Positions 2,651-24,945 of a DNA stretch of 64,000 nt are shown here, piece by piece. The DNA comes from an uncultured beta proteobacterium (GTDB taxonomy: Bacteria; Pseudomonadota; Gammaproteobacteria; Burkholderiales; Usitatibacteraceae). Below the pieces are notes generated by a model that made no database searches, was not told the DNA's origin, and worked only from the letters and a program-made list of their open reading frames with translations. Made by a program: the position numbers and the translations under genes. Each line of letters opens with the position of its first letter. The stretch's first letter is position 1. The stretch lies in assembly GCA_963839265.1 (NCBI GenBank), contig CAWIUI010000008.1:97235-161234 (forward strand), in the 5' to 3' direction.

Positions 2651-3077
2651 TCAGCGCAGCTCGTTCGGCTTCACGGTTGTGATGAGTTCGTCGGCGGCCT
2701 GCGATCCGGCGAGGTCGGGGCCGGGGTCAGCGAGCGCGCCGGGGCCGGGGTCAGCGAGGGCGCCAGGGGCGGGGTCGGCTAGGGCGGCGGGAGTGCGGGC
2801 CGGGACCGGCCGGGCGGTCAGCAGCACGGCGGAAAACGGCCCCCGCGGCGGCGAAGAACGCGATGACCAGGATCAGGCCGTGCCGGTACGCCGCCACCGG
2901 ATCAGCCCGCGACACGCGGGACAAGATGGCCACCAGCCCGGCCACGCCGAGCACGGTGCCGACCTGCCGTGCCGTGTTCAGGATGCTGCTGCCGGTGCCG
3001 AACCTTCCCGGTGTCAGCGACGCGCTCCCCGCGCCGAGCAGTGACGGAATCGTCAGTCCCACCCCGGCGCCGCCTAG
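2651..3077 (-). pseudogene. MFS transporter fragment 4 (C-terminus)
   Basis: LGGAGVGLTIPSLLGAG...LNTARQVGTVLGVA; extra T near 2830 shifts frame; three 24-bp repeats encoding ALADP(A/G)P(G/D) near 2712-2783. Confidence 0.85.
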
Positions 3078-3203
3078 CCCGAGCTTGCCGTAACTGTCTG
3101 TACATCTAGCAGGCTTGACCTGCGGGAACCGGGCCCGATGCATGACTGATTGTAGCCACTAAATATAGTGGACATCGGTACGCTGACCTGCGATGATCAG
3201 CGT

Positions 3204-4991
3204 ATGGCGAGTACACGGCATTCGGGGATGTACGTCGAGAGCCCGTCGCGGACCTACCGGGCCAAGGACGGCAGCACGCGGACCTACCGCACCCATTTGC
3301 TGCGCCGCTCGTTCCGCGAGGGCGGGAAAGTGAAGAAAGAAACGCTGGCGAATCTGTCCGCGCTTCCCGACAGCGCGATCGCGGCGCTGAAGGCGTCGCT
3401 GTCCGGCTCGATACTGGCGGACGCGGGCGATATGTTCGAAATCGAGCGGTCATTGCCGCACGGGCATGTCGCTGCGGCGCACGTGATGGCGTCACGGCTG
3501 GGGCTGAAAAACCTGCTCGGCCCCGATTGTTTTGAGCGGGACCTGGCGTACGGGCTGATAATCGCCCGGGCGGTCGCGCCGGCCTCCAAGCTGGCCACCA
3601 CCCGCTGGTGGGCGGACACTACGCTGGGCGTGGACCTGGGTGTGGAGAATGCCGGCACCGACGAGGTGCATGCGGCTATGGACTGGCTGCTATCCCGCCA
3701 GGACGCGATCGAAAAGAAACTGGCGGCCCGGCACCTGGAGCCCGGCGGGCTGGCATTGTTCGATTTGCCGTCGGCGTGGCTGGAAGGGCATAGCTGCCCG
3801 CTGGGGGCTTTCGGGCATTCCCGCGACGGCAAGAAGAACCGGGAGCAGATCGAGTTCGGCATGGTGACCAGCCGGGCCGGGATCCCGGTCGCGGTCCGGG
3901 TATTCGCCGGGAACACCTCCGATTCGGTGGCGTTCGGGGAAATCATCCCGGTCGCGCGCGACAAATTCGGGCTCGGTGAGGTCATCTTGGTCGGCGACCG
4001 CGGCTCGGTCACCCAGGTGCGGATCCGCCAGCTGAAGGCGCTGCCCGGCGCGGGCTGGATCACGGCCCTGCGCGCCCCCTCCATCGCGGCCCTGGCCCGC
4101 GACGACGGGCCGCTGCAGATGTCGCTGTTCGATGACCAGAACTTCGCCGAGATCACCGACTCCAGATATCCCGGGGAGCGGCTGATCTGCTGCCGCAACC
4201 CAGCGCTGGCCGCCCAGCGCGCCGCCAAGCGCGAATCCCTGCTGGCCGCCACCGAAAAAGAACTGGACATAATCAGGGCATCGGTGCAGGCGGGCCGGCT
4301 GAAAGGCGCCGATAAGATCGGGGTGAAGGTCGGCAAGGTCATCAACAAGCGCAAGGTCGGCAAGCACTTCATCACCGATATCGCGGACGGGCGCCTTTCC
4401 TGGCGGCGGGATGACGAGAAAATCGTCGCGGAGGCGGAGCTGGACGGGATCTACGTCATCCGCACCTCCGCCGCGGAGGAAAAGCTCGGCGCCGCCGAGA
4501 CCGTTGAAGCATACAAAGATCTCGGGAACCTGGAACGCGATTTCTGGTCGATGAAAGCCGAGGACATCGACCTGCGGCCGATTTACCACTACCTGGAAAA
4601 CCGGGTCCGGGCGCACGTGTTGTTGTGCATGCTCGCCACCTACCTCACCTGGCACCTGCGCCAGGCGCTCGCCCCGCTCACTTTCACCGACAACAGAAAG
4701 CCCCGCCGCGAAGACCCTGTTTCCCCGGCCCGCAGGTCCGCCACGGCAACGGCGAAAGACACCGCGAAAATCACCCCGGATAAGCTGCCCGTCCGCGGCT
4801 ACCACGAACTAATCAGCCATCTGGCCACCCTGACCAGGAACACCGTCAGCTTCAACGGGCGGCGCCTGGAAAAACTCTCCACACCGACCCCGGAACAGCG
4901 CCGCGTATTCGAGCTGCTCGGCAAGCCGATCCCGGAGGGTTATCAAAAACTCTCCAGCGCGGGCTTTCGCGGATCTCCATCTAATTGTTAG
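3204..4991 (+). CDS. IS1634-family transposase (native C-terminus displaced to 5882-5902)
   Basis: LFDLPSAWLEG, GHSRDGK, VGDRG and ERDFWSMK motifs; removing the nested IS gives the end KPIPLRLDAA*. Confidence 0.9.
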   Translation: MASTRHSGMYVESPSRTYRAKDGSTRTYRTHLLRRSFREGGKVKKETLANLSALPDSAIAALKASLSGSILADAGDMFEIERSLPHGHVAAAHVMASRLGLKNLLGPDCFERDLAYGLIIARAVAPASKLATTRWWADTTLGVDLGVENAGTDEVHAAMDWLLSRQDAIEKKLAARHLEPGGLALFDLPSAWLEGHSCPLGAFGHSRDGKKNREQIEFGMVTSRAGIPVAVRVFAGNTSDSVAFGEIIPVARDKFGLGEVILVGDRGSVTQVRIRQLKALPGAGWITALRAPSIAALARDDGPLQMSLFDDQNFAEITDSRYPGERLICCRNPALAAQRAAKRESLLAATEKELDIIRASVQAGRLKGADKIGVKVGKVINKRKVGKHFITDIADGRLSWRRDDEKIVAEAELDGIYVIRTSAAEEKLGAAETVEAYKDLGNLERDFWSMKAEDIDLRPIYHYLENRVRAHVLLCMLATYLTWHLRQALAPLTFTDNRKPRREDPVSPARRSATATAKDTAKITPDKLPVRGYHELISHLATLTRNTVSFNGRRLEKLSTPTPEQRRVFELLGKPIPEGYQKLSSAGFRGSPSNC

Positions 4992-5878
4992 TAAAGTTCT
5001 AATTTCGGCACGGCGCGCCTAAAAGGCAACGGCTCCCCGCGTCGGTAGAAAGAAGGTGCGAACCGAATCATTTTACTGATGGAGGAGCCGTTGCGTTACC
5101 ATCGTACCTTCGGACTCGATGCCGGACAACTCGATGAACTCGAGGCGCGTATCGAAGATATCCTGTCCGAGCCCTGGGATAAGGGAATCGGGCGGCCGAA
5201 GAGCCTCTCGCTGCGGGAAGCGATCATGGTAACGCTGCTCTACAAGCGGCAGCATATGATCGAAGAAGTCATTGCCGATCTTTTCGGCGTCTCCCAGGGC
5301 ACCGTCTCGGACATCATCACAGAATTCACCCCGCTGATCGCTCAGGCTACCGAAGAGTTCCGGCCGGACCTGGAGGAGGCGAAGCAGATGACCCGCGGTC
5401 GGCTGGCGCTGGTAGACGGCACGTTGTGGCCATGCTGGTCATGGGAGCGCGCCCCCGAGATGTGGGCCGGGAAATATAAGACTACCGGCCATGGCAGCCT
5501 GATTATCAGCGACGAATTCGGGAACATAATCTTCGTCTCGGTCCCGGCACCCGGATGTGACCATGACATGAAGAAGCTGGAAGGCGAGGTGAAGGAGATT
5601 CTCGACCTTGCCGGAGCGGTTATCGCAGACAAGGGATTTCAAGGATCCGGCTACGTCACGCCGGCGAAGAAGCCACAGGACCGTGAACTCTACATGCGTG
5701 AACATGAATACAATAACCAGGTCAGTTCTATCCGCGCTCCCATCGAGCGCGCGGTTGCGCACCTCAAGACCTGGAAAGTCCTTTTCACCGATTATCGGCG
5801 GCCACTTAACACGTTTCTTGATTCCTTCCGCGCAGCCATTGGCCTATATTTCTTCGAATTGAGTTTTCAATAATCCTC
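4935..5878 (+). mobile_element. IS5-family (ISL2-like) insertion sequence
   Basis: IRs GAGGGTTATCAAAAACTC / GAGGATTATTGAAAACTC; 3-bp TSD CCG (4932-4934, 5879-5881). Confidence 0.9.
5079..5873 (+). CDS. DDE transposase (HTH_Tnp_4 + DDE_Tnp_4-like)
   Basis: LVDGTL, ADKGFQG and RAPIERAVAHLKTWK motifs. Confidence 0.9.
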   Translation: MEEPLRYHRTFGLDAGQLDELEARIEDILSEPWDKGIGRPKSLSLREAIMVTLLYKRQHMIEEVIADLFGVSQGTVSDIITEFTPLIAQATEEFRPDLEEAKQMTRGRLALVDGTLWPCWSWERAPEMWAGKYKTTGHGSLIISDEFGNIIFVSVPAPGCDHDMKKLEGEVKEILDLAGAVIADKGFQGSGYVTPAKKPQDRELYMREHEYNNQVSSIRAPIERAVAHLKTWKVLFTDYRRPLNTFLDSFRAAIGLYFFELSFQ

Positions 5879-6003
5879 CCGCTCCGCCTCGACGCAGCGT
5901 AACCAGCGTAGCCACGAACGGAGGTCCCCGCCAGGCCCAACCAGACGGCAAAACCCCAGGTCAGCACCCACAATTCCCTAGTAGAAGATCACGTAAGGAC
6001 GGC

Positions 6004-6339
6004 CTAGCAGCTGAGCCGGCAGCAGGTGGGTGAGGTAGGCCGGCTGGGCCTGGATCTGGGCCAGCCACAGCAGCTGAGCGGCGGCGTTGACGGCGCAGCC
6101 GATCACCGCGACCCGGCCGGGGCCGCCGAGCCGGGCGGCCAGGCGCGGCGCGACGATGCGGGCGAACGGCAGCACCATCAGCGGCCCGGGCGCGATGGCC
6201 AGGCCGGCCAGCACGGCGGAGTAGTGCCACACGCCGGTGAGGAACTCGACCGCGCTGAGCACGAAGGCGCCGAACCCGGCGTAGTACAAGATCGAGGCGC
6301 CGAACGCGCCGCTAAAAGAACGGGACCGGAGCAGCTCAA
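6004..6339 (-). pseudogene. MFS transporter fragment 3
   Basis: LLRSRSFSGAFGASILYYAGFGAFVL...LLPAQLLG; joins fragments 2 and 4 in frame once the ISs are removed. Confidence 0.9.
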
Positions 6340-6377
6340 CTGACGTTCCGCACTTCTCGGTTGGGTTTTCCCGGTAA

Positions 6378-6743
6378 TTAGCGGGCTGGCTTCTGGTGTT
6401 CTGGCAAGGTGGCCAGGATTAGGTCGCGGGCCTTGTCGCTGACTTGCTGCATCTGGGCGAGCAGGTCGCCGAGCGCGCGGCCGTTGCCGATCCATTCGGC
6501 GTAGAGGGCGGCCTGGGCTGCGCTGAGGCGGCGGGTGACGGTCTTCCCGCTGACCTTCCGGGTGTACTGCCAGTAGGGGCCGTGGCGCCTGGCGGGGTCG
6601 GCGTGGCATGAGCAGCCGGCCGTGCCGCATACGTTCCGGGTGCTCAGCACGGTGCCGGAGGCGGTGAACCCGATCTGTGCGATCTGGGCGGCGAGGTCGC
6701 GGTAGCGGGCACGCAGTTCGGCGAGGCCTGCTTCTTCGGTCAA
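6378..6743 (-). CDS. DUF6788-like IS-associated small protein
   Basis: CGTAGCSCH...HGPYWQYTRKV-GKTVTRRL motif; lies inside the IS, divergent from the transposase. Confidence 0.75.
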   Translation of the reverse strand: MTEEAGLAELRARYRDLAAQIAQIGFTASGTVLSTRNVCGTAGCSCHADPARRHGPYWQYTRKVSGKTVTRRLSAAQAALYAEWIGNGRALGDLLAQMQQVSDKARDLILATLPEHQKPAR

Positions 6744-6841
6744 GGATGTTCTCCCGTGTCGTGCGGCGTGCCGGCTGGCGCGCGCCTGCCGTAAGTATAG
6801 ATACTTACGGTAGATACCGGGCTACCGTCAAGGAGGTGGCG

Positions 6842-8558
6842 ATGGACACGCCGGCGTTCACGCTGACCACCCAGCGTCTCGGCGCCCTGCCGCTGATCGG
6901 CTGCTTCGCGGCCCGGATGGGCCTGCCCCGGCTGCTGGATACCTGGGTCCCGGCTGATGATGCCCGGCTGGCGCTGGACCCCGCGGTGGTGATCGCGGTG
7001 ATGATCGCGAACCTGGCAGTAGAGCACCGGCCGCTGTACGCCCTGCGCGAGTGGGCCGCCGCCTACGAGCCGGCCCTGCTGGGGCTGGCCGCGGGGGAGG
7101 CGGAACTGCTCAACGACGACCGGGCCGGCCGGATGCTGGACCGGTTGTTCCATGCTGACCGGGGCAGCCTGCTCACCGAGCTGATGACGGGCGTGATCAG
7201 CGAGTTCGCCATCGACTGCTCGCGGCTGCACAACGACTCCACCTCCGTCAGCGTGCACGGCGCCTACCAGAACGCCGGCGGCCAGGACGTGGCCGGCACC
7301 CCGGCGCCGGCGATCACGTGGGGGCACTCCAAGGATTACCGGCCGGACCTGAAGCAGCTGGTGTTCATCCTGACTGTGACCGGGGACCACGCCGTGCCGG
7401 TCATCTACCGGCTGGCGGACGGCAACACCAATGACGACCCGACCCACATCCCCACCTGGGACGCGCTGGTCAAGCTGACCGGCGGCCCCGGCTTCCTGTA
7501 CGTCGCGGACTGCAAGCTCGCCTCGGCGGAGGCGATGGGCCACATCGACCGGGGCGGCGGCCGGTTCATCACCGTGCTGCCGCGCAGCCGCAAGGAAGAC
7601 GCCGCGTTCCGCGCCTGGATGCAGGACCACCAGCCGGACTGGGCCGAAGCTCACCGCGCGCCCGGCCGGATCGGCGAGCCGGACCAGGTCTGGTCCGCCT
7701 GCCAGGCGCCGTGGCCCTCCGCGGAGGGATACCGCGTGGTGTGGATCCACGACAGCGGCAAGCAGCTCCGCGACGCCGCCGCCCGCGCCCGCAAGATCGA
7801 GAAGGGCGTGCAGGCGATCGAGGATGACCTGGCCGGGCGGCTGTCCTCCCCGCGCACCCGGCTGCGCACCGCCGCCGCGGTCCACGTCGCCGCCGAGGCC
7901 GCCCTCGCCGACGCCGGCGCGGCCCGCTGGGTCCGCTTCACCGTCACCAGCAAGACCCGGGAGTCGTTCCGGCAGGACGGGCCCGGCCGGGCCCGCCACC
8001 ACTTACCGGCGCATCGAGAAGCAGTCCTTCGCGGTCACCTGCGACATCGACCACGACCAGGTCAGCTACGACGCGGCCAGCGACGGCTGCTGGCCGCTGA
8101 TCACCAACGACCGCGACATGACCACGGCCGGCGTGCTCGCCGCCTACCGGTACCAGCCGAACCTCGAGCGGCGCCACCACCTGCTCAAAGGCATCCAGGA
8201 CGCCGCGCCGGTCTGGATCAAGACCATCCCGCGCATCGAGGCCATCTTCTTGTGCCACTTCATCGCGCTGCTGATCAGCGCCCTGATCGAACGGCAGATC
8301 CGGATGGCGATGAAGGCGGCCGAGATCGCGAGGATCCCCATCTATCCCGAGCTGCGCGGCTGCGCCGCGCCCACCGCCGACCGGATCTTCGAGATCTTCG
8401 CCCACGTCTCCCGGCACGAGCTCCGCGACACCGCCGGCAACCTCATCCAGGTCTTCGAACCCGAGCTCACCGAGCTGCAGCTGAAGATCCTGGACCTCCT
8501 CGGCATCCCCGCCACCATCTACAGCAGAGCCGCCGAACCCCGGCCCGCCGTCGGCTAA
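6842..8558 (+). pseudogene. IS1634-family transposase (DUF4277 N-terminus), frameshifted near 7990
   Basis: AGGAGG RBS; LGALPLI, HNDSTS, GHSKDYRPDLKQ, YVADCKL; C-terminal half (YRYQPNLERRHHLLK) continues in another frame. Confidence 0.85.
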
Positions 8559-8596
8559 TCCCGGAGATAACCCAACCGAGAAGTGCGGAAGGTCAG

Positions 8597-9307
8597 GCTC
8601 AAGCTCGATCACGGGGGAGATTTTGGGATGATGCCGCTTCGAGCGGATCACCATGATCGTGCCGCAGGCCAGGGAAGCAAGAAGCAGGCCGATGAAGCCG
8701 ACCGAGCCCCACCCCAGGCCGGCGCCTTGACCAGCGCCAGCGCGACCAGGCCAACGGCCGCGGCGAGCAGCCCCGCGCCGATCAGGTCAGGCCGGCCGCT
8801 GGCCCGCTCGTCCTTGCTCTCGGGCACCACCTTGACGGCCAGCACCATCGCGGCCACCCCGACCGGCAGGTTCACCCAGAACACCCAGCGCCAGTCGATC
8901 TGCACCAGGGTGCCGCCGATCACCGGGCCGAGCGCCGCGCCGAGCGCGCCCAGCGCCGACCAGGTGCCCAGGGCCTTCGGCCGGGCGTCCGGCGGGACCG
9001 CGGCGAGCAGCAGCGACAGCGACGCGGGCACCATCGCCCCAGCGCCGGCCGCCTGGACGACCCGGGCCGCGATCAGCGCGGCCACGCCCGGCGCCAGCCC
9101 GCACAGCAGCGACCCGACGCTGAACACGGCCAGCCCGGCCACGAAGAACCGGCGCCGCCCGATCCGGTCGGCCCACCGCCCGGCCGGCACAAGCACGGCG
9201 GCGAACACGATCGTGTAGGCGTTGAGCACCCAGGACAGCGAGCTCAGGCTGGTGCCCGGGTACTGCTTGCCGATGGCCGGGAAGGCCAGGTTGACGATGA
9301 AAAGGTC
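8597..9307 (-). pseudogene. MFS transporter fragment 2 (DHA2/EmrB-QacA N-terminal half)
   Basis: DLFIVNLAFP, WVLNAY, GRWADRIGRRR motif A, WRWVFWVNLPVG; 1-bp deletion near 8718. Confidence 0.9.
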
Positions 9308-9864
9308 TCTGTTATCACCGTCTGCTCACCGCAAGGAGAGCGCCGTGACCAGTAACGACGATGCGAACCGCGAGCCCTACGACGTGCACGCGAAGTTGGA
9401 GGACCAGACGGGCGTGCTGGCCGTGGCCCTGGCGCAGGGGGAATTGCGGGACGACACCATGCCGCAGCCCGAGGTCCGCCGGGCGGCATCCATCGGGGTG
9501 GATGCGATCGACACCATGCTCGCCGCACTGCACGCGATGCGGGCCCGGCTGGTATCGGAGATCCGCGCCACCGACGACGCCGCGCCGCGCGAGCGGATGC
9601 GATGACCAAGGCTAACGGCCTGGCGTCCCGCCGGACATAGTTCCCGTGCCCGCGCAGCGTGACCACCAGGCCGCGCTCGCGCAGCAGGCCGATCGCCTGC
9701 CGCAGCGTGTTGTACGCAATGTCATACTCCGCTGCCAGCTCGCGCTCCGGGGGCAGCCGGGAACCCGGCGCCAGCTCCCCGGCCCGCACCCGCGCGGTGA
9801 GGTGATCCGCGACCTGGACATAGGCGAGCTGCAGCGGGTCGCGCGTGAACGGCGGCACAGCCAT
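9244..9864 (-). CDS. GntR-family winged-helix regulator (domain in first ~80 aa; true 3' end uncertain)
   Basis: AYVQVADHL...GSRLPPERELAAEYDIAYNTLRQAIGLLRERGLVVTLRGHGNYV. Confidence 0.8.
   Translation of the reverse strand: MAVPPFTRDPLQLAYVQVADHLTARVRAGELAPGSRLPPERELAAEYDIAYNTLRQAIGLLRERGLVVTLRGHGNYVRRDARPLALVIASARAARRRRWRGSPIPAGPASRAVRRAWCRSHPPRWMPPGGPRAAAWCRPAIPPAPGPRPARPSGPPTSRARRRARGSHRRYWSRRSPCGEQTVITETFSSSTWPSRPSASSTRAPA
9293..9320 (-). other. Hybrid att site at left end of the integrated element (P arm + GA core + B' arm)
   Basis: Minus strand reads CGGTGATAACAGA-GA-CCTTTTCATCGTC; the right arm is MFS coding sequence. Confidence 0.85.
9345..9605 (+). CDS. Hypothetical protein
   Basis: AAGGAG RBS before GTG; 86 aa, helical character. 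Confidence 0.55.
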   Translation: MTSNDDANREPYDVHAKLEDQTGVLAVALAQGELRDDTMPQPEVRRAASIGVDAIDTMLAALHAMRARLVSEIRATDDAAPRERMR

Positions 9865-9959
9865 AACAAGCACGCTATCGGTCCACTGACCAGCAGGGAT
9901 ACCGCACAGGCTCCCGTGTGCCTTAGCAAGCTCGCTATAGCAGTCGTAGCATTAGGCAC

Positions 9960-10214
9960 ATGAACGGTGACTATGCAGCCGACCTGGCCAGCCTGCGCTA
10001 CCACTGGGGCAGCGCCTACCTCATCGAGCACCCCGAGCCCGACGTCTGGATCGCGGTCCGGCGGGATGACCACGCCACGCTGCGCGCGGACAGCCCGGAG
10101 GCCCTGCGCGAGAAGATCGTCGCCGACTACACCGCTCACCCGGTGAGCAGGTCGGTGGCCCCCGGTACGGACCGGCCGGAGACGCCGAGCTGCCGGTTCC
10201 TGCCCGAGGCCTGA
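9960..10214 (+). CDS. Small hypothetical protein divergent from gntR
   Basis: 84 aa, LRYHWGSAY...WIAVRRDD; plausible composition. Confidence 0.6.
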   Translation: MNGDYAADLASLRYHWGSAYLIEHPEPDVWIAVRRDDHATLRADSPEALREKIVADYTAHPVSRSVAPGTDRPETPSCRFLPEA

Positions 10215-10795
10215 CGGCGAGGGCCAGGCCGAAGTGAGGACGGCCCTAGCGTGGTTGTGTAGAAATTCCTGGTAGGGCGGCGTGTCGGGTACTCGTGCTA
10301 TCGCACGATCGTGCTAACCTTGTCAATGTAAATAATCATCACTGGCCAGAGCGGGACGGCCGGAACCGGCAGTCCGAACCGCCCCGCCCTAGCTGTCACA
10401 CGTGCCGCGCGACGAGGTCCACCTTCAGTAAGACTCGTAGCTGGACACATGCGGTCGGCGGTCGCGGGTTCGTCACGTCACTGTGACTAGCCCCGGCCGT
10501 CACCACTCCAGCAATGGCCAGGCTCACGATCACCTGGACCCAGCCGGACACGCTCGGGTTCTGTTTCTTTCTGCCCATATTCACCTCCTTCCGCTATGCA
10601 CGGCACCCGGCTTGGTGCGCGATCGCAGCACCCAGACGGGCAGGAGGTAACCGAAGCGGGACCGGCGTAGGTCCTAGCAGTAAAAGTAACGGAGCCCGGT
10701 CGGATAGCCACGGAGGCACGCCGGGCGAGTCGGATGCATCTCTTTCACCGTCTGCGGAGGCGCGTGTTCTATCCAGGTCGTTTGGATGGTGACCT

Positions 10796-11161
10796 ATGAG
10801 CGATCGGCCCGGTGCCGATCGTGATCGGCTCCTCATTGCGGAGCTGCACGGCACGGCGGGCCACCACGCTAAGTGGCGCGAGCTGACCGAGGCCGAGGAG
10901 GCCGCTGCGGTGGCCGGGCTGCGGGAGCTTGCGGCCGGGCGCGTCGACCTGCTGGCCGAGGTCGCCGGGATCCTGGAAGGCGCGTCGGAAGGCGAACTGA
11001 ACGAGCCGATCAAGCGGCAAGCCGCGCAGCTGTGCCGCAAGGCAGGCGCCGACCCGAACGCGATACCCGCATGGGTAGAAGAAGGGCGCCGCCGCCGGGC
11101 GAATGCCGGCAAGCCGCCGTTCATCGAGGCGCGTTACCGGCGCCCTGGAGCCCGTGCGTAG
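10796..11161 (+). CDS. Hypothetical protein
   Basis: 121 aa helical ORF with GC3-rich codons. Confidence 0.55.
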   Translation: MSDRPGADRDRLLIAELHGTAGHHAKWRELTEAEEAAAVAGLRELAAGRVDLLAEVAGILEGASEGELNEPIKRQAAQLCRKAGADPNAIPAWVEEGRRRRANAGKPPFIEARYRRPGARA

Positions 11162-11330
11162 AGGGTCGCCGGGCGGGTCACAGGTACCGGGCCCGAGCGC
11201 CGCGCATTTTCCGGGTCGGCCCCTCCAGCGGGCCTGACGGCGAGGGCCAGGCCAGAGGCCAGGCCCTATCGGCGCGCGGCGAACTAACGGTAGCGACGCC
11301 ACGGAACGCCTGCAAGGTGCTGAAGTCCAG

Positions 11331-11566
11331 TCACGGGGACGTAATGCTTCCTGTAGGCGTCCATTTACCCAATGTGAAGGTAGGGTGCCAGAAGCTGAGG
11401 GGCCAGGTCAAGATCGAGATGAAGTACTGGATCCAGCTATGAAGCGTCGCCAGAGTGGCAGTAGTCGGCGGAATATGGGGGGTGCTGTGTTGTAGAAGAT
11501 ACCGATCAGAATGTAGATGGCAATGAGCAACCCAGTTGTGCTGAAAAGGGTTTTCAGGAATTTCAC
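11331..11566 (-). pseudogene. Small membrane protein, copy 2 (frameshift in G6 tract)
   Basis: GGAGGTG RBS; MKFLKTLFSTTGLLIAIYILIGIFYNTAPP then frame lost; paralog has G7; span is 236 nt. Confidence 0.75.
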
Positions 11567-11772
11567 CTCAGCTCACCTCCTGCGTGGACGCTGGAACTGG
11601 TGCAGATGAGTGACCGCCTTGCGGGCAGTAGACGCGGAACGTGCGGACGTAGGATGTCGTGTTCGTCACCAAGATTAAACACCATTCCAACATAGTCGTC
11701 TCGCAGGTCCTGCATGAGGGAGGAGACATGATCAGCAGGGTCGACCTCCAGGCTGCCTGCAAGATGCGGAAG

Positions 11773-14778: not shown

Positions 14779-14877
14779 AAGCACCTGGGAGAGCAACTGG
14801 GAGAAGTAAGGGCCAGTGGCGATGAACTCCACAGGGCTGGCAGAGAGCTGGCCAAGACCGAGCCGAAGGAGAACCCG

Positions 14878-15980: not shown

Positions 15981-16934
15981 CTAGCCCGCCTCGGCTGGCC
16001 CGGAGCCGGTGCCCGCCCGCTGCAGCCGGCCAGAATGGGCGTCTAGTTTCCAGCCCTCCGGAACCGGCGCGTCGGCGGGCCACTTGACGCCCGTGAGATT
16101 CGCGCCCACGAGGTACGCGCCCTTGACGTCTGCGCCGGTGAGGTCGACGCCGGCGAGGTTCGCACTCATGAGGCCCGCACCAGTGAGATCCGCGCTCACG
16201 AGATGCGCGCCCGCGAGATCTGCGCCCACTAGGTTCGCACCGGTGAGGTTCGCGCGGAGGAGATTCGCGCTTGCCAGGTTCGCGCGGAGGAGAATCGCAC
16301 AAATGAGCTTCGCGCCCCGGAGATCGAGTGGCCGGATGTCGCGCTTTGCATCGCGGCGTCCAACTACGGTCACGGCGGCCTGAACGTCGGGCCGGATCGA
16401 TGGGTCCCGCTTTTGGTCTCCGGTGCCTGGCGGCGTCCGCTGCTCGTCTGAGTGCTCGCGAATGAACGCGGTAAGTACTTCCATCACGGTCGGATGGTCT
16501 CTTGCGGAGTCGCGGGCGACGCGCTCCAGCGCGTAGATGCCGCCTATCCGCACGTCGAGCTTGTCCGAGCCGAGCTGCTCAATGGCCTTGGCGTAACGAT
16601 CGGTCACCTGCCCCTGCTCGGTCAGCTCATGGGTGCGCCGCTGCCACTGGTCGGCCTGTTCCGAGTTACGCCGCAACAGGCTGAAATTCAGGGCAGTGAA
16701 GACCAGCGCGGCTGCGGCAGCCAGGCCCGCGCCCAGCGTCAGCAGCCGGCCCCTGGCGTTATCCACGGCTGTCTCGTGCAGCGCACCCGTGGCTGAGCCG
16801 ACGTCCTGGCGCGCCAGCCAGTCCGCCAGCGGCATGAACGCCGCCCACACGACTGCCAGCCCGAACACGACAGCGGTGATCCCGCCTATCGTCCATCGGA
16901 TCCCCTGCGGCCATGCCGCCCAGCGCTTTAGCAC
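15981..16934 (-). CDS. Membrane-anchored pentapeptide-repeat protein
   Basis: Two TM segments, [29 protein letters not shown], then A(N/D)LxG repeats. Confidence 0.9.
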
Positions 16935-17308
16935 GTGAAGACGTTAGGGGGAATGAGCCTGTGCCCGCTCGCTGGTGCGGACATGAGGTAGCGAAATCGA
17001 TACCCAGGCGGATGCCCGGTGAAGGCCAAGCCGTCCGCGCCGTATGCCCTGCAGTATGTCGGGGCCGCCCGACCCGGTGACATAGCCGGGCCGGGAGCCT
17101 AGTCCGCTGGTACGTCCGGACCGTTCTTTAACGGTTGCTCTGCCGGGTAGCGCCGCGCCGAGGCTGCCAACTAGGGTTCCCGCCCAATCTGCCCGTCATC
17201 ACGATCTGTCACCGGCATCTGCGCTGGTCACTGACATGTCTGTCGCGCCTCGTCCTCCTTGCCGAGCACTGAATTAGGGCATAGGCTAGTTGGTAGGAGG
17301 AGAACATA

Positions 17309-17884
17309 ATGACCAGCATCGACGTCGCGGTCTGGTACCGCGTCAGTGGCAGCGACCAGACGACAGACAACCAGATCCCGGACGTGCAGCGGTTCTGCCA
17401 GCACCACGGGTACACGGTCACCAGGACCTACGAGATCAGCGACTCGGCCTGGAAGCAGGGGCCTGAGTACCGCAAGGCGGTCCAGCGGGCGCTGGACGAC
17501 GCGCAGGAGGGTCACTTCGCTGTGCTGGTGGTCTGGGCGCTTGACCGCATCGTCAGGTCGGGCAGCGAGGCAGGCAAGTCCGCGTCCGAGGAGGCGCTGT
17601 CGCTGTTCCGCCAGTTCGGCCAGCGGCACGTGTCCATCCTGTCCGTGAAAGAGCCGTGGCTCACGGCCTCGCCCGAGATCCAGGCCGTGATGATCAGCTT
17701 CGCGGCCTGGGTCGCCGAGCAGGAGAGCCGCCGCCGGTCCGAGCGCGTGCGTGCAGGGATGGCCAGGGCGAAGGCCGAGGGCAAGACGGTGGGCGGCAGG
17801 CAGCGCGGAGCCAAGGACCGCAAGCCGAGGTCACGGGCGGGGTACGCCGCCGAGCAGGCCCGGCGGAAGGCGGTCTCGTCATGA
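17309..17884 (+). CDS. Small serine recombinase (resolvase catalytic domain)
   Basis: AGGAGG RBS; YRVS (catalytic Ser), VWALDRIVR and E--RRSERVRAGM motifs. Confidence 0.9.
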   Translation: MTSIDVAVWYRVSGSDQTTDNQIPDVQRFCQHHGYTVTRTYEISDSAWKQGPEYRKAVQRALDDAQEGHFAVLVVWALDRIVRSGSEAGKSASEEALSLFRQFGQRHVSILSVKEPWLTASPEIQAVMISFAAWVAEQESRRRSERVRAGMARAKAEGKTVGGRQRGAKDRKPRSRAGYAAEQARRKAVSS

Positions 17885-18054
17885 TGCGCCAGCGGACCTA
17901 CCGCCTGATCGTGGTCGAGGTGGATGGCGAGGTCACCGATGAGGGTTGCACGCCGATCGAGCTGGAGGTGGCCACCTACCTCACCGAGTCGTGCTGCGCC
18001 CACGATGCGGTGCTGGCCGTAGCCGACCGCCTGGCTGATGAGCACGCCTCCTAG
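17881..18054 (+). CDS. Small hypothetical protein coupled to the recombinase
   Basis: ATGA overlap; MMRQRTYRLIVVEVDGEV. Confidence 0.45.
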   Translation: MMRQRTYRLIVVEVDGEVTDEGCTPIELEVATYLTESCCAHDAVLAVADRLADEHAS

Positions 18055-18803
18055 AACATGCTCCTGGTAGGGGTAGAGCGGAAGCCGTGGTTCCGGCTGA
18101 CCGTCTCGGCCACCGGGCTTCCCAGCTCAGGCACCCTGATCGTCTCCACGTTCGACGCCCTGAGCGCGATTCTGCGGCTCCCGGAAGCGCCAGGGTCCGG
18201 GGGGACTATGCCCACCTGCGCTCCTGGCGCTCCTACGCCCCTCTACAGCGCCGTACAGCACCGTTCCAGCCGCGCCGTCCCGTAGCTGAGTTCGACTTTA
18301 TCCGCCCAGCAGCGGAAGGCCCCATCCCTTTAATTGCCTGGCATAAAAGCGGCTGCCCAGGGTGGTTGGGCGGCCCGCTGAAAATGCGACCGCACGAGGT
18401 GCAGAAAACAGGTACCGGAGAAGTTGAGCCAGCCCAGCCGCGCGCAGTGCCGCCTGACAGCCTCGGGTGTGCCCGTCTCAGCGGTTCCTCCGGGTGCGGT
18501 ACGTCCATGCACCTGCACCTGCATGTAGGCCGCGCGCTCGCACCAGTCCTTCTTGGCCAGCTCGGAGACGTAGCAGGGCCTCCAGATGAACGTCTCGCAG
18601 CAGATGCATCTCCGGGTGACCAGCGGGTTGATCAGTAGATCATCGGCACCGCTGCGCTCTTGGGCACACGCACATCCGATGCTCTCCTACAGCGCGCCGG
18701 TGATCCGGTTACCCAACTGGCTGGTTAACTGGCCAAGACGCGGGTTGGTGACGTAGTTGAGCCTGGCACTTCATGAACCAGATGTCGCTGGCGCACGAGG
18801 GAT

Positions 18804-19250
18804 TCAGCGGACGAGCGCCTGTCGCCGGCTGGCCGTCGCCGACCAGCGCACGATGCCGGCCTCGGCGAGCTGCTGCAGCGCCGCCGGCACATGCTGCTTG
18901 GCGATCCCGGTCCGTGCCGTGACCATCGCCTGCGTCACCGCCGCGCCGGGCTGCAGGTCGCCGCGCTTCACCAGCTCCGCGACCGTGCGCACGGCGTCGT
19001 CCACCATTATCTGCCGGGCGTCACGCTTCCTGGTATCGTGGCCGCGCCGGATATGGTCAGCCAGGTGCTCGGCTGCGGTCTTGCCGCCGACCGTGATGTG
19101 CTCGGCCCCGCAGTGTGGGCAACGGGCACGTTCGGCGACGTCAGGCGAAGATAACCGCTCGGTACGCCACGGCGAGCTGCCCTTTAATGCGGTGATGCGA
19201 CCGTCGACCAGGCTGTGTTGCGGGGTGTAGCCGCTGGTCCTCAACGCCAC
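18804..19250 (-). CDS. C2H2 Zn-finger + winged-helix protein
   Basis: CPHC...HLADH; C-terminal GntR-like VTQAMVTARTGIAKQHVPAALQQLAEAGIV. Confidence 0.6.
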   Translation of the reverse strand: MALRTSGYTPQHSLVDGRITALKGSSPWRTERLSSPDVAERARCPHCGAEHITVGGKTAAEHLADHIRRGHDTRKRDARQIMVDDAVRTVAELVKRGDLQPGAAVTQAMVTARTGIAKQHVPAALQQLAEAGIVRWSATASRRQALVR

Positions 19251-19593
19251 TCGTCTTCGGTGGCCGGGTCGCGCCGGTAGCCGGGCGGCACCTGACGGGA
19301 TGAGTCGCGCAGCTGCCCGCTGAACACCTGCTTGTTGGCCACACGCGGGTCGGCGTAACCAGGCAGCCCATCGAACATCCCCTGGCTGCTCGCCGTGGTA
19401 TGTCCCGGCCTGCGCGGTGGCCCGGCTGGCGGCGCGTCGTGTACGCCAAGCTCGTCGCGATGCGCCACGAAGTCAGCCATGCTCATCGTCGCGAGCTGGT
19501 CCGCGTCGAGCTGGCTGGCGTCGGCCTGCTGCGGGACCGCCGGACCGGCAGCGGAAGCGATCTTCTCCTGCCACCAGGTGGACCTCGACGCGT

Positions 19594-20685
19594 TTAGCGC
19601 CGACTGGGGTATCCACTTAACCGGACTGGAAACTGCAGCTGGATTTCGGCGGTCCGCCACGGGCGGTCCGCCGCTGGGCGCTCGAGGCTCGGAGGGTGTC
19701 CCGTGCCGCCCTCGGCTCGCTTCGCACGGCGCGGCTTTTTGCTGGCGAGCAGATCCACGTACCGGACTGGCTCGTGGCCGGCGGCTAGCTGCAGGACCCG
19801 GTAGAACACCATGCCCCGGCTGGCCGATCGGCGGCGGTTGAACCGGAAGACGAACTCGTTGAGATAGGCGGGCAGGTGCGCGGCGTCAACCGAGCCCTGG
19901 TGGGTGCCCAGCAGCCACCGCTTGCACAGCGAGGCGACCCGATGGACTCCGGGCAGCAGGCTGTCCGGGTCATCCCCAGCGGCGCGGGCCGCTTTCTGGT
20001 TGATGGGCCGGTGCTGATATCCCTTGCCGCTGATGGCCCGGTAAGCGGCCCAGCCGTCAGTGATGACCGTCGCCCCTGGCTGGACGTTCTCGGTGACGAA
20101 CGTGCCCAGCGTGTCACCGCTGGCGTCATCGAGCGGCGCCATCCGGCAGCGGCCGATGCCCTTCGGCTCGCGAACCTCCACGGCGATCCCGGTGAGGACC
20201 TTCTTGCCGCGCTGCCGCCCGCCCCGCAAACCGGGCTCCTCGCCGCCGATGTAGGTCTCATCGACCTCGACCGTGCCGGACAGCCGGTCACGGCCCGGCC
20301 GCACCAGCGCTGACCGGAGCCGGTGCAGCATTGCCCACGCCGTCTGATAGGAGCCGATCTCCAGCACCCGCTGCAGGTGCTGGGCGGAGATGCCGTCCTT
20401 GGCGGTCGCGAACAGCCAGCAGGCGTGGAACCACACCGTCAGCGGTGTGCGCGTCTTGTCGAAGATAGTCCCAGCCGTCACCGAGGTCCGTGATCCGCAG
20501 CCGCCGCACTTGACCCGGCCGTCACCCAGCCGCCAGCCTCCCGCATGACCGCAGTCCGGGCAAACGAATCCGCCCGGCCAGCGCAGCCACTCAAGGTAGT
20601 CCAGGCAGTCGTCGTCAGTGCCGTACCAGGAAAGGAACTCGCCGGTCGATCTCGGGTAGTGCGCGCCCGCGACCGGTGTCGTCAT
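19594..20685 (-). CDS. IS1595-family transposase
   Basis: N-terminal Zn ribbon CPDC/CGGC; VEVDETYIGG, ITDGWAAY and YLNEFVFRFNRR motifs. Confidence 0.95.
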   Translation of the reverse strand: MTTPVAGAHYPRSTGEFLSWYGTDDDCLDYLEWLRWPGGFVCPDCGHAGGWRLGDGRVKCGGCGSRTSVTAGTIFDKTRTPLTVWFHACWLFATAKDGISAQHLQRVLEIGSYQTAWAMLHRLRSALVRPGRDRLSGTVEVDETYIGGEEPGLRGGRQRGKKVLTGIAVEVREPKGIGRCRMAPLDDASGDTLGTFVTENVQPGATVITDGWAAYRAISGKGYQHRPINQKAARAAGDDPDSLLPGVHRVASLCKRWLLGTHQGSVDAAHLPAYLNEFVFRFNRRRSASRGMVFYRVLQLAAGHEPVRYVDLLASKKPRRAKRAEGGTGHPPSLERPAADRPWRTAEIQLQFPVRLSGYPSRR

Positions 20686-20720
20686 GCGACGAGTCTAGTC
20701 CGGTTAAGTGGATACCCCAG
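19604..20720 (-). mobile_element. IS1595-family insertion sequence
   Basis: 24-bp perfect IRs CTGGGGTATCCACTTAACCGGACT; 8-bp TSD AGCGCCGA (19596-19603, 20721-20728). Confidence 0.95.
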
Positions 20721-20963
20721 AGCGCCGATACCCGCTCGGCTTGTCTGGCGCGGGATTCGAGCTGGTCGAGTGCGCGGGCCTGGTCTTGCTCGGTCATTGT
20801 CGTCTCTTCCTTGTCATAACCTGGAGGAGGAATTCGAGACCCTTGCGATTCCCGAATTCCTCCCGCTTCCCTTACGGCCGGAACTGGCGGCCTTGTATCC
20901 ATTATCCCATGAAATTCCTGATATACTTAAGTGTGTATAGAAGAGCATTATCAGGAGAGGGCA

Positions 20964-21116
20964 ATGGCGAGGTCAATCGCTAATTTCAGCCTCGATCCGG
21001 AGCTATTGGCGTGGTTCCAGGGCCAGGCGCAGCTGGAAGGCCGCCCGATGAGCCGCATCGTGGCCAGGCTGCTCACCGAGTACCGGGCTAAGCAGGCGGA
21101 GAAGTCCAGCGCATGA
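20964..21116 (+). CDS. Ribbon-helix-helix (CopG-like) protein
   Basis: 50 aa: NFSLDPELLAWFQGQAQLEGRPMSRIVARLLTEY; CAGGAG RBS. Confidence 0.7.
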   Translation: MARSIANFSLDPELLAWFQGQAQLEGRPMSRIVARLLTEYRAKQAEKSSA

Positions 21117-21739
21117 GCCTCAGCGAGCCGATCGCGTTAGACCTTGAGCTGCGTGCCTTCGTCTACCGGCTGTGGAACGCGGACGGCGCTTGCATGTATG
21201 TCGGGCAGCACCGTGGTATCCATCCAGCTGTCCGCATCAACCAGCATCGGAGCCAGCCCTGGTTCGGCGAGGTTGATCATGCTGACTTCGTAGAGATCCT
21301 GGACGGTGACCTGGATATCGCCGAGAAGCAGATGATCGCCGACTTGGAGCCGCGCTACAACAATGGCGGCTATTACGGGCTCCATCCCCGTGCCCCGCTG
21401 CCGCCGGAGGATGTGCGTGCACCGCATGATGACGAGGATCTGCTATTTCGCGATTTCCTGCTGCGTCTCCTGGAGGAGAACCTGGGCGCTGACCTCTGGG
21501 CGCTCGTCAAGGCCCGCAGTGAAGCAGCTGGCCGACGAGCGGAGCGCGTGATGACTGACTCCGTACTCGACCCCCGCACCCACCCGGTGAGCTTCGACAT
21601 CACCCAGCCGCCGCAGCAGGTCATCGCGCGGGCGCTGGCTGAGCCCGCCGCTGACCGCCTGCGACAGCGCCTTGATGATCTTGAGCACCGCCTGGATATC
21701 CTGCAGGGCATCCTGGCCGATCTCCTGGAGGACAGTTAG
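21113..21739 (+). CDS. GIY-YIG-domain protein with C-terminal coiled coil
   Basis: FVYRLW...MYVGQ...RINQH...AEKQMI...PRYN; ATGA overlap with the RHH gene. Confidence 0.75.
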   Translation: MSLSEPIALDLELRAFVYRLWNADGACMYVGQHRGIHPAVRINQHRSQPWFGEVDHADFVEILDGDLDIAEKQMIADLEPRYNNGGYYGLHPRAPLPPEDVRAPHDDEDLLFRDFLLRLLEENLGADLWALVKARSEAAGRRAERVMTDSVLDPRTHPVSFDITQPPQQVIARALAEPAADRLRQRLDDLEHRLDILQGILADLLEDS

Positions 21740-21914
21740 ATATGGCAGTCACCCCGTTCGACCCGACCGTCTCGACGCTGCTCATCCCGAACCAGCTCCA
21801 GCCCGTTAACGGTGTCTCGGACGCGACTTTCCTCAACCAGTTGCTGCCCTACGCCTCACGCATCAGCCCGATTACCCGAGCGCAGCAGCAGGTGCAGCAG
21901 GAAGGACAGCCGGA

Positions 21915-22286
21915 ATGACGAAGACCGGGAACAAGAACTTCGCGCAGGGCCAGGCCGTGTCGGAGCGCGAGACGGGAGCCGGGTGGGGATCTCCCGCTGA
22001 TAGCGCCAGCCCGCTGCCGCTCGATCAGCATCACACCCGCCGCAGTTACGTCGGTTTCGGCGAGATGCCGCGCGATGCCCGGCGTGAGCTGGCCAAGGCG
22101 GGTGATGAGCTGGAGCGCACCGTGATCAACCTGTCTGCGGCTCAGCTGGTCCACGGCGCGACCAGGGGCCTGCCCGGCCAACATGATGAGGTGGACAGCC
22201 CCGGCCGCACGTCCGGCAAGATTCCGCGCCGTGCATACGTTCCTGGGAGCCGCATACGCGCGGCCAGCAGCCGAGGGCCGGGATGA
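21915..22286 (+). CDS. Hypothetical protein
   Basis: GGAAGGA RBS; first gene of a coupled run of ORFs. Confidence 0.5.
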   Translation: MTKTGNKNFAQGQAVSERETGAGWGSPADSASPLPLDQHHTRRSYVGFGEMPRDARRELAKAGDELERTVINLSAAQLVHGATRGLPGQHDEVDSPGRTSGKIPRRAYVPGSRIRAASSRGPG

Positions 22287-22424
22287 TCCATTGGACCGCT
22301 ATGTAGGTGTTCGCGCGCTGCTGCTGCCGTCGTCGTCAGCGCCCCGCAGCGGCTTCGACCGCACGCATGAGCTGAGCCATCACGACGTGGCCGGCACCAC
22401 CATCATCAACGCGCTGGAGCAGTC

Positions 22425-22697
22425 ATGAACGACGACGACCGCTGGCAGACGCAGCGGGTGGCTGATCACCGCGTGCGGGAAGATGACAGGTTAGCCAGCG
22501 CCCGTGACCAGGCTCGGTTCCACGGCCCGCCGCCGCACACGGTCGCGCTGTTCTCCGAGCGCATGTTCACGCCCAATGCCCGCGAATCCCAGCAGCTCGG
22601 CACGGTAAGCGGCGAAACCGCGCTCGGCCTGCCGCCCGCGCCGATCACCGTGGGACGGGCACGACCGAGTGACTACGACGAGGAGGACTACCGGTGA
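22425..22697 (+). CDS. Hypothetical protein
   Basis: GGAG RBS; ATGA and GTGA overlaps at its two ends. Confidence 0.55.
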   Translation: MNDDDRWQTQRVADHRVREDDRLASARDQARFHGPPPHTVALFSERMFTPNARESQQLGTVSGETALGLPPAPITVGRARPSDYDEEDYR

Positions 22698-23161
22698 CAG
22701 TTTCACTCTTGGACGCCGAGGGCCGCCCGATATCCGCATTCGGCTCCCATGCGTCCTGGAATCAGGGCGCGGTGACCAATGCCGCGTCGTTCAGCGAGAC
22801 GGGCGCAGGCAGTACCAGCGGCAGCACCGGCACGGGCGCGGCCAAGATCTCGCCGACCAAGGCGGGCTCGACCAAGGCCCTGGGGTACCAGGATCTGGCC
22901 GCTCAGAGCCCTGGCGCGCCCCACCAGCCGCCCCTGGAGGTGGCCCCGGCACAGATCACGCCGCCGCGCACCAACCCCGATGAGCAGCCCGGCAGCAACC
23001 CGGTGGGCGATGCGCTCAAGGCGGTCGCGCAGCACTACGGGCCGACGGAGCAGCCCGGCCGTAACGACGAATTCCAGGTCGGGCGGACCAGCAGCCTCCC
23101 AGGTGCGGGCGAAGCAGCCGGCATAGCCGAAGACCTGGCCGACGTCGCGGAGGTGGCGTAG
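22694..23161 (+). CDS. Hypothetical low-complexity protein
   Basis: GAGGAGG RBS; GTGA overlap; rich in G/S/T/A/P. Confidence 0.55.
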   Translation: MTVSLLDAEGRPISAFGSHASWNQGAVTNAASFSETGAGSTSGSTGTGAAKISPTKAGSTKALGYQDLAAQSPGAPHQPPLEVAPAQITPPRTNPDEQPGSNPVGDALKAVAQHYGPTEQPGRNDEFQVGRTSSLPGAGEAAGIAEDLADVAEVA

Positions 23162-23430
23162 CCGTGCAGCTGAACGCGACTGAGCCGTTCGACATTAACG
23201 GCGCGGTCGGGCAGCTGGCTCATTTCGCCAAGGGCATCGTGTCCGGCCGTCCGGGTCATACTCTTCCAGCTGCCGCAGGCGGTGCTGGCGAGGTGGCCGA
23301 GGAGGCTGCCCCGTTACTGCTGGCCTGAGCGTCGCTGTAGCCTGTTCTGCGCGCCGGGTACCCAATGCACGCTGATCGCCGTAGAACCGCCTTCAGGTGC
23401 CACTACAGCGCGTCCAGCGTGATCTAGGCG

Positions 23431-24809
23431 TCAGGCCGGGTACGGGAACACCCCGTGGTCCGCGCCGTCGATGATCACCCGGACGCCCTTGGTCGCGCCG
23501 GGATCAGCCGGCGTGGCCTTCTCCACCCGGATGTCACGGGTCTTGAGGTACTCCCGCTTGCCGTCGTCGTCTAGGCCGTAGAAGTGCTCGCCGACCGTCA
23601 TCCCGGTATCGCGGTCCACTCCCAGTGGCCCGCCGTGGCCTCCTCCTCGTTCTTGCGCCGGTACTCCGCCAGCGTGGCCTGCAGCGCGGGCAGGTTCTCG
23701 AACCGCTCGGCCTCCACGGCTTCGCGCAGGTCCTGCTTCACGTCGGCTATCTCGGCATCCCAGTTGATGCCCGTGGCCCATTCGCGGGTCCGGTAAGGCT
23801 CCTCGCTGGTCAGGAACACCCGCGTGATCACGATGGTCTCGGCCTGCGCCAGCGGGACCATGTTGCCGCATCCCTTCCGCTGCGGTCCCGAGCCGAAGCA
23901 CCGGTAGTAGTACCGCCCGCCGCCCGTGCTGCCGCTCTTGATCCGGTACATCGGCGAGCCGCAGCGGGCGCACCGGAGGCCGGCGAGCATCGGCGGGTCA
24001 AGCGTCGCGGGTCCGCGATGCGGCCGGGTCTTCAGCGCCTGGTTGGCGCGGTCGAACACGTCGGCCGGCACTACCGCCTCGCACCGTTGGATGGTCACGC
24101 CCTGGCGGTTCTGCAGCCGGCCGGCGTACGCCCTGGTGCGGATCGTCCAGCGGACGCTGCTCTCATTCCAGTGCGCCTTGCCCCGTGGCGACGGGATGCC
24201 CTCGGAATCCAGCCAGGCGGCGATCGTCCGCAGCGAGTCGCCGGCGATACACCGGGCGAATATGTGCGGGACCACCCGGCGGCACAGGGCGGTCGGCACG
24301 ATCCGCTTGTGGTGCTTGGCGCCCTCGATCGTGAACCCCCACGGGACGTTGCTGTACACCGCGCCGTTCCGGTGCATGGTGTCGAGCGCGATCTTGACCT
24401 GCTCAGACAGGTGGACCGAGTGCTGGTGGGCGATGACCGCGCCGAGGGCCGTGACGGCCTCGCCTGACAGGTCCTCGGTGCCGAGCAGCGGCTCCTTCAC
24501 CGACTCGATCCGCCCGCCGGCGTCCTTGACCTGCCGGAGCAGCCGGAACAGCGCCTCGGGACCACGCCGCTCGGCGCGGTCGCTGTGCCAGCACACCAGC
24601 ACCCTGATCGTGCCCTCGCGCATGTCGTTCAGCATCTCGTCCAGCGTGGCCTGCTGCTCGCCCTTGCTGGCGCTCTTGTCGTTCAGCTCGTACCGCCGCG
24701 TCACCAGGTAGCCACGCTCCTGGCAGTGCCGCTCGACGTCGGGAACCTGGCTGGCCTCGTTCTGGTCGGCCGTGGAAACCCGGACCCAGGTGCCTGCTGG
24801 CTCGTTCAT
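23431..24809 (-). CDS. Large serine recombinase (integrase), apparent frameshift near 23612
   Basis: WVRVS, WHSDRAER, recombinase domain, Zn ribbon CARC...YRC...GC and coiled coil; tail (DTGMTVGEHF...) is in another frame; start is 48 bp from the att core. Confidence 0.9.
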
Positions 24810-24843
24810 CGTCCTCGCCCTGCCCTTCACCTGTTAGCATACT

Positions 24844-24871
24844 CGGTGAGAACAGGTCCAGGCTGGACATG
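24844..24871 (-). other. Hybrid att site at right end of the integrated element (B arm + GA core + P' arm)
   Basis: Minus strand reads ATGTCCAGCCTG-GA-CCTGTTCTCACCG. Confidence 0.85.
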
Positions 24872-24945
24872 AAGATGGCCAGCGAAAGCACGCCGATCAC
24901 GGCAGTGACCCGGCGAGCGTCCGGCAGCGGGGAAGGGGAGCTCAC
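24857..24945 (-). pseudogene. MFS transporter fragment 1 (N-terminal 29 codons)
   Basis: AGGAGG RBS, GTG start, MSSPSPLPDARRVTAVIGVLSLAIFMSSLD; continues at 9305 as LFIVNLAFP. Confidence 0.85.

Follow-up and report, generated by a model that had tools for sequence, protein, structure and literature searches.

Elements moved by large serine recombinases (LSRs) may interrupt a host gene on integration, as exemplified by phiBT1 in SCO4848, Bxb1 in groEL1, A118 in comK, and SPbeta in spsM. Insertion sequences (ISs) are likewise found packed together, as in the IS6110 preferential locus (ipl) inside IS1547 of Mycobacterium tuberculosis and in the IS nests of pseudogene-rich genomes. One such family, IS1634, has IS4-related DDE transposases. 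The present study concerns a 64,000-nucleotide stretch of high-G+C DNA (hereafter, the window; positions 97,235 to 161,234 of contig CAWIUI010000008.1 in assembly GCA_963839265.1), where a gene of the major facilitator superfamily (MFS) lies in four pieces over 22 kb. Very probably, this was a DHA2 gene that was cut by an LSR element and two IS1634-family elements and then decayed. LSRs and their target genes have been catalogued as clusters by Durrant et al. 2022, and the sharing of target gene clusters by distantly related LSRs is an established general pattern (PMC10083194). In the literature that we searched, no paper tied serine integrases to attachment sites (attB) in MFS/DHA2 genes.

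All four pieces of the MFS gene lie on the minus strand. Fragment 1 (24859-24945) comprises a GTG start and codons 1-29, covers the first half of the first transmembrane segment (TM1), and ends in ...FMSSL(D). Fragment 2 (8603-9307) carries codons 30 to ~266 and matches PF07690 at 3.7e-37 on its own, while codons ~267-376 are found in fragment 3 (6008-6339), and fragment 4 (2651-3077) runs from codon ~377 to the TGA stop at 2653-2651. In silico excision of 9308-24858, 6340-8602, and 3078-6007 joined these pieces into a single minus-strand MFS frame, with the junctions (slash) reading MSSL/DLFIVNL, VIELE/LLRSR, and PAQLL/GGAGV. The frame was continuous save for two 1-bp frameshifts, which global alignment to orthologs placed at ~8712 in fragment 2, where a C is missing (GGGG-TGGGG here versus GGGGCTGGGG in orthologs), and at ~2836 in fragment 4, where there is an extra T. 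An initial annotation of the window had proposed precisely this, that is, one MFS gene split by three separate insertions and bearing two 1-bp indels, and our analysis supports it on both counts. The fragment coordinates that it gave are right within a few bases; the small differences concern 8597-8602 and 6004-6007, which are second copies of target site duplications (TSDs) rather than parts of the gene, and the end of fragment 1, which lies at 24859.

The frame-corrected spliced product has thousands of full-length relatives. The best of them (P0002, 494 aa), named an EmrB/QacA-subfamily transporter by its source, is 92% identical at 100% coverage. P0002 is encoded on a 12.9-kb metagenome contig (L001) among the same neighbours as in the window, namely an ATP-dependent DNA ligase, a divergent HxlR regulator, and the MFS gene itself. 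The uninterrupted gene of L001 is collinear with the four window fragments, and the overall nucleotide identity is 95.2%. Taken separately, the aligned stretches are 93.2% (window 24850 upward, 24850-27386), 96.3% (9307-8598), 97.9% (6337-6002), and 92.7% (3078-2792) identical to L001. Successive alignments overlap slightly (by a few bases) where they meet, which is what an empty site should give, and the empty site of the 15.5-kb LSR element is visible in L015 as well as in L001. The orthologs carry PF07690 and PF00083, and among curated families the intact ortholog P0002 fits the DHA2 model TIGR00711 best, at 218.3 bits, just under the cut-off of 230.2. A crude Kyte-Doolittle scan found 14 separate hydrophobic segments in the spliced product.

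An origin of the fragments from different paralogs was considered and rejected, as they are collinear with a single ortholog at 93-98% identity. Furthermore, the MFS paralogs within the same assembly are all at most 34% identical, which again argues against a mixture of paralogs. Thus, the product anticipated by the initial annotation, a single 14-segment transporter rather than a patchwork of paralogs, is what splicing and frame correction gave. By homology, the four pieces are one dead MFS gene of the DHA2 (EmrB/QacA) type, with a predicted role in efflux. Separately, a 24-bp unit encoding ADPGPGAL-like repeats occurs in three copies at 2707-2791 in the C-terminal tail of the MFS protein and is expanded versus the orthologs, a change in repeat number that keeps the frame and affects a tail of low conservation.

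The insertion that separates fragments 1 and 2 is an integrative element of 15,551 bp (9308-24858), moved by an LSR. The core AGGTC is common to both junctions (9303-9307 and 24854-24858). The element attachment site (attP) reconstructed from them, CGGTGAGAACAGG-TC-TCTGTTATCACCG, is almost perfectly palindromic with its centre right at the junction, the form that a serine-integrase attP should take. By eye, its arms CGGTGAGAACAGG and CGGTGATAACAGA agree at 11 of 13 positions around the TC/GA centre. The LSR gene (23598-24830, minus strand; 410 aa) starts 28 bp inside the element. Its product contains PF00239 Resolvase, PF07508 Recombinase, and PF13408 Zn_ribbon_recom domains, all above cut-offs, together with the catalytic motif VRVSTADQ at residues 16-23, and is predicted to catalyse attP x attB integration. 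Other genes of the element encode an AAA_25 RepA-like protein, a small resolvase, a pentapeptide protein, and a GIY-YIG protein. A domain search of the element genes gave no matches to conjugation or capsid families, and no directionality factor was identified for the element. Viral contigs contained neither an exact match to the reconstructed attP nor relatives of the LSR.

An IS1595-family element (19604-20720, minus strand) is nested inside the LSR element. Its transposase scores 193.4 bits with NF033547 (cut-off 75), its 27-nt terminal inverted repeats are 96% identical, and it is flanked by the 8-bp TSD AGCGCCGA (19596-19603 and 20721-20728). Elsewhere inside the LSR element, at 11,329-12,253, a stretch of lower G+C (57-59%) holds two direct repeats of ~220 bp that are 87% identical.

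Is the position of the LSR element within the gene a matter of chance? LSR homologs were gathered from metagenomes and actinobacterial genomes, and at least eight other loci (L109, L112/L114, L116, L138, L139, L140, L141, and L143) have such a homolog 20-180 bp from a DHA2 gene in which homology sets in at the TM1 motif LD(x)(x)IVNVALP. Both junctions were resolved in two loci: an 8.7-kb element in genome G422 (L151; G422:C318:22,904-31,656), with the N-terminal stub MTDRSRWVALVVLCAGMMMIVLD, and an 11.3-kb element in genome G329 (L145-L147; G329:C1:120,083-131,354), with a stub ending in ILILTAAFMVVLD. In both, the crossover falls at the same GA of the Asp codon as in the window. Their shared cores hold this GA, and the reconstructed attP palindromes are centred on it; the attP arms of G422 (CATTGACTGTT and AACAGTCAATG) are perfect over 11 bp. 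For the LSR element of G169, the far junction was not found within 40 kb. Beyond the insertion point, the split DHA2 gene of G422 retains an intact frame of 466 codons; the remainder in G329 is heavily decayed, having lost ~215 internal codons, and the integrase of that element is degraded. In the LSR tree, each of the two major clades includes enzymes that target MFS genes, and the window enzyme is nested among them. As judged from these junctions and neighbourhoods, the LSR insertion is targeted, not random, and the family repeatedly uses one DHA2 codon. The closest genomic homolog of the window LSR (L136 in genome G165, G165:C12; 60% identity) adjoins a SARP-type regulator gene.

The other two insertions are IS1634-family elements, both on the plus strand. 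IS-B (6340-8596) measures 2,257 bp, ends in imperfect terminal inverted repeats of 62 nt, and lies between copies of the 6-bp TSD GCTCAA (6334-6339 and 8597-8602). Its transposase passes NF033559 (141.8 bits versus a cut-off of 100) and is frameshifted at ~7985. An independent copy in a related genome (L128) is 80% identical with the same ends, has the TSD CCGGGT, and retains an intact frame of 631 codons. IS-A (3078-6003; ~1.98 kb minus a nested insert) has weak terminal inverted repeats and the 4-bp TSD CTAG (3074-3077 and 6004-6007). Its transposase ORF (3168-4991; 607 aa) looks intact and scores 288.1 bits with the same model (cut-off 100). An independent copy of IS-A (L120, G165:C2), 86% identical with the same ends, has TTAG on both sides and no nested IS. 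CTAG in the window and TTAG at L120 indicate that IS-A makes 4-bp YTAG duplications. In all, genome G165 contains about a dozen (12) matches to IS-A. We also asked whether CTAG density drew IS-A to the gene, and rejected this, since there are 2 CTAG sites in 1.55 kb versus 0.86 per kb in the surrounding block. The transposases of IS-A and IS-B align with each other over just 49 aa, at 35% identity; by this comparison of their products, the two are unrelated elements, barely akin to each other.

The insert nested in IS-A (4934-5880, plus strand) lies at the 3′ end of the transposase gene. As L120 is continuous between the equivalents of window positions 4934 and 5877, this insert is a separate IS. 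Its terminal inverted repeats begin with GGAGGGTTATC and end with GATAATCCTCC, its G+C is low (57-60%), and its duplication, of 0-3 bp, is ambiguous. The transposase (5079-5873) passes Pfam DDE_Tnp_4 (57.8 bits versus 24.8) and also HTH_Tnp_4, and none of the curated IS5 models was passed, the best being NF033581 with 43.6 bits versus a cut-off of 140. Thus, the insert appears to be an IS5/Harbinger-type DDE element, with a loose family assignment. The initial annotation had rightly recognised the integrase element and the two IS1634-type ISs with TSDs GCTCAA and CTAG; it had missed the nested IS5-like and IS1595 elements, and the integrase belongs to the serine rather than the tyrosine recombinases. 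The gap between IS-A and IS-B is 336 bp, and that from IS-B to the LSR junction is 711 bp.

On the other side of the LSR element, an HxlR-family regulator gene (25048-25494, plus strand; PF01638, 74 bits versus a cut-off of 20.8) is divergent from the MFS gene, with 102 bp to the MFS start. Across the 80 related genomes and L001, HxlR and the MFS gene are neighbours at 78 of the 81 loci; in ~75 of these 78 it is divergent and upstream, ~100-450 bp away. As the initial annotation had pointed out, the cognate regulator of the window is now stranded from most of its partner gene and adjoins merely its 29-codon stub. The LSR gene adjoins this MFS 5′ fragment and, at 24830-24945, reads in the direction of the MFS start, from behind the promoter region that the MFS gene shares with HxlR. 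Such a placement makes HxlR-controlled host transcription of the integrase possible, and integration may bring the LSR under this control.

When was the gene lost? With substitutions polarised by L015 as outgroup, 23 synonymous and 6 non-synonymous changes are specific to the window lineage, and 14 and 5, respectively, to L001. These ratios indicate that the gene was under purifying selection for nearly all its separate history; the two frameshifts, like the three insertions, are therefore of recent date. Both frameshifts fall within the ~1.55-kb MFS gene, and none was seen in the neighbours examined (ligase, M20 peptidase, phosphoenolpyruvate carboxykinase, LSR, and others; very roughly 12 kb). 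This distribution suggests real decay of the sequence rather than random sequencing error.

The organism to which the gene belongs needs to be considered separately from that of the assembly, which is labelled an uncultured beta proteobacterium. Tetranucleotide composition changes sharply at about window position 38,650 (38,560-38,750; contig position ~135,900). The block to the left, from contig position 1 to ~135,900, has a self-correlation of 0.98-0.99 and a correlation of ~0.85 with the remaining assembly, and the DNA to the right of the switch correlates at 0.99 with the rest of the assembly. The switch point lies inside a truncated korB-like gene for a thiamine pyrophosphate (TPP) enzyme, and korA, to its right, has 81-90% identical orthologs in same-genus relatives. 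Neither the MFS ortholog nor the adjacent ligase was found in any of 41 relatives of the assembly or of 143 genomes of the same family. All 80 MFS orthologs came from Streptosporangiaceae-like or other actinobacterial metagenome-assembled genomes, and the owner of the gene is an uncultured Streptosporangiaceae-like soil actinobacterium. The contig is probably chimeric, an actinobacterial block of ~135 kb being fused to the genome of another lineage; we hold this to be more likely than a very large foreign island (at least 135 kb). As the block is foreign to the host genome, the relatives of the host assembly are uninformative on intermediate states of the locus.

No further copies of the LSR or of the four transposases were found elsewhere in the assembly, all being single-copy. 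We had regarded this as a striking coincidence and dropped the idea, since the block is a mere fragment of the genome of another organism; every transposase is single-copy because the rest of the donor genome is absent from the assembly. An IS701-family element (~36.6-38.3 kb; 36,63x-38,25x) with perfect 19-bp terminal inverted repeats (GGTACTACAGTCCGGGTTT) and 355 bits for NF033540 lies ~400 bp from the composition switch and is not itself the junction. At 29,853-31,154, between 2OG-Fe dioxygenase-like and HTH_31/DUF5753 genes, the window has ~1.3 kb missing from the syntenic L001, in which no convincing gene or family was identified.

We propose the following history for the locus. The 15.55-kb element would have been inserted by its own LSR through conservative site-specific recombination between a quasi-palindromic attP and an attB that this family uses in many DHA2 genes, the crossover falling on the GA of the codon for Asp within the TM1 motif ..SSLD/LFIVN... 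The IS1634-family element IS-B would have transposed into the gene and duplicated 6 bp, and the unrelated IS-A would have entered at YTAG and duplicated these 4 bp. Further transpositions inside the mobile DNA, of the IS5-like element into IS-A and of the IS1595 element into the LSR element, would account for the five mobile units at the locus (the LSR element, IS1595, IS-B, IS-A, and the IS5-like element), and the two 1-bp frameshifts would then have accumulated in the MFS gene. All these events presumably befell a single lineage, recently and over a short time, and at least the later hits would have persisted since the gene was already non-functional. As regards the LSR element, we consider, with moderate confidence, a broader view. 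It may be one of a family of small elements with serine integrases that is widespread in actinobacteria, and the ancestral attachment site of this family would be the DNA encoding the DHA2/EmrB-QacA TM1 motif 'LD(x)(x)IVNVALP', so that dozens of paralogs per genome would serve as alternative landing sites and each integration would kill a drug/toxin exporter. The polarity would have flipped at least once by reversal of GA/TC relative to the integrase gene, placing the window integrase directly downstream of an HxlR-controlled promoter.

Several observations weigh against these proposals. The MFS gene is uninterrupted in 80 of the 80 related species-level genomes and in L001, and no intermediate insertion state was found in any of them. 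Hence, the order of events is not recoverable from sequence; the initial annotation had expected related strains to supply it, and the relatives of the host assembly are without the locus. The contig is composite at ~38.65 kb, which makes assembly quality a concern, and it is from the assembled contig that both frameshifts and all three insertions are taken to share one molecule. The window LSR element is inserted opposite in orientation to all other MFS-targeting relatives; in these, the integrase is divergent from the 3′ part of the gene, whereas in the window it is next to the 5′ stub. Furthermore, the closest LSR homologs (60-66% identity) adjoin SARP regulator and GMC oxidoreductase genes, and no MFS stub is recognisable upstream of them (L136, L095, L096, L098, and L101). 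Any conservation of the target within the own subclade of the window LSR is therefore conjectural.

The initial annotation had inferred that the gene became a neutral landing pad after the first insertion, which is a plausible reading. In a strict form of the argument, the LSR element, or else one of the ISs, killed the gene first and the others persisted only because it was dead, the clustering being survivorship and not targeting; we are tentative about this form and put it slightly short of an even chance. The IS5-like element in IS-A and the IS1595 element in the LSR element also sit in harmless DNA, so transpositions into such DNA do persist at this locus. The gene has acquired two frameshifts as well, the substitution pattern is that of recent inactivation followed by a rapid build-up of lesions, and, CTAG not being enriched in the gene, IS-A was not drawn by target density. 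Against the strict form, no intermediate states were found in the 80 relatives. Moreover, the LSR hit was programmed and independent of the state of the gene; it needs no 'neutral' gene and could have been first, last, or between. A cell may also do without an accessory efflux pump that is still intact, in which case every hit could be near-neutral, and the intact 466-codon remainder in G422 indicates that disruption does not quickly draw further insertions.

A different possibility is that the three insertions were not independent, the ISs having come with, or been attracted by, the integrated element, through local hopping or a liking for the surroundings of mobile DNA. The LSR and four transposases being single-copy in the assembly and all within 22 kb, and the three insertions lying within 1.5 kb of each other, would fit such a regional effect. 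We nevertheless consider it unlikely, because the missing rest of the donor genome explains the single-copy status, and relatives of IS-A and IS-B are multi-copy and dispersed in related genomes (12 matches in G165). In addition, the two transposases are unrelated to each other (49 aa at 35%), and the block holds the IS701 element elsewhere, at ~36.6-38.3 kb. The suspicion that no single cell ever had the four-piece gene, the insertions being drawn from different strains or from mis-joins, gains from the abrupt lineage change inside the truncated korB-like gene, by which the assembly has at least one suspicious join. Against such an artefact, every junction bears a biological hallmark, either a duplication of 4, 6, or 8 bp or an attP palindrome with a shared core; and over distances of 336 bp and 711 bp, ordinary long reads would span adjacent junctions. 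An artefact is, therefore, highly improbable. Successive hits by an LSR element and two unrelated ISs on one gene in one lineage remain our preferred account.

The locus shows gene decay of an ordinary kind, and the target specificity of its integrase is of modest interest. As decay it matters little, since the disruption of a dispensable efflux gene by mobile DNA, complete with nested ISs, belongs to textbook genome erosion. The fixed LSR target is of more use, because a target in a very large paralogous transporter family yields a natural set of related attB/attP pairs, three of which are fully reconstructed here. These pairs are candidate orthogonal integration tools in actinomycetes, and such elements would, by implication, systematically silence efflux pumps. 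For window positions 1-38,650, any inference from relatives must use Streptosporangiaceae-like genomes and not the taxonomic neighbours of the assembly.

Compared with described systems, the HxlR-MFS pair of the window resembles HxlR/YodB-type divergent efflux pairs in being divergent with a short common intergenic region. In contrast to them, the regulator retains only a 29-codon stub of its partner, and the function of the pairing is predicted. As in other members of the IS1634 family, each transposase passes the NCBIfam cut-off, and each element ends in terminal inverted repeats and is flanked by a short duplication; IS-A differs by its 4-bp YTAG duplication (CTAG, TTAG) and the weakness of its terminal inverted repeats. 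Like ipl and other IS nests, the window packs several independent transpositions into ~1.5 kb of non-functional sequence, with ISs within ISs and intact target duplications that denote simple insertion. Unlike those nests, it is known from a single metagenomic snapshot, and one of its three hits is a site-specific recombination and not a transposition. With the known gene-interrupting LSR elements, the 15.5-kb element shares a three-domain LSR, a short common core, and a quasi-palindromic attP, and it likewise integrates within a coding sequence, inactivating the gene. As in the clusters of Durrant et al. (PMC10083194), distantly related LSRs here go with one target gene family. The differences lie in the target, which is the Asp codon of the DHA2 TM1 'LD' motif, a motif common to many paralogs per genome, and in the orientation of the window element, which is reversed relative to its MFS-targeting relatives.

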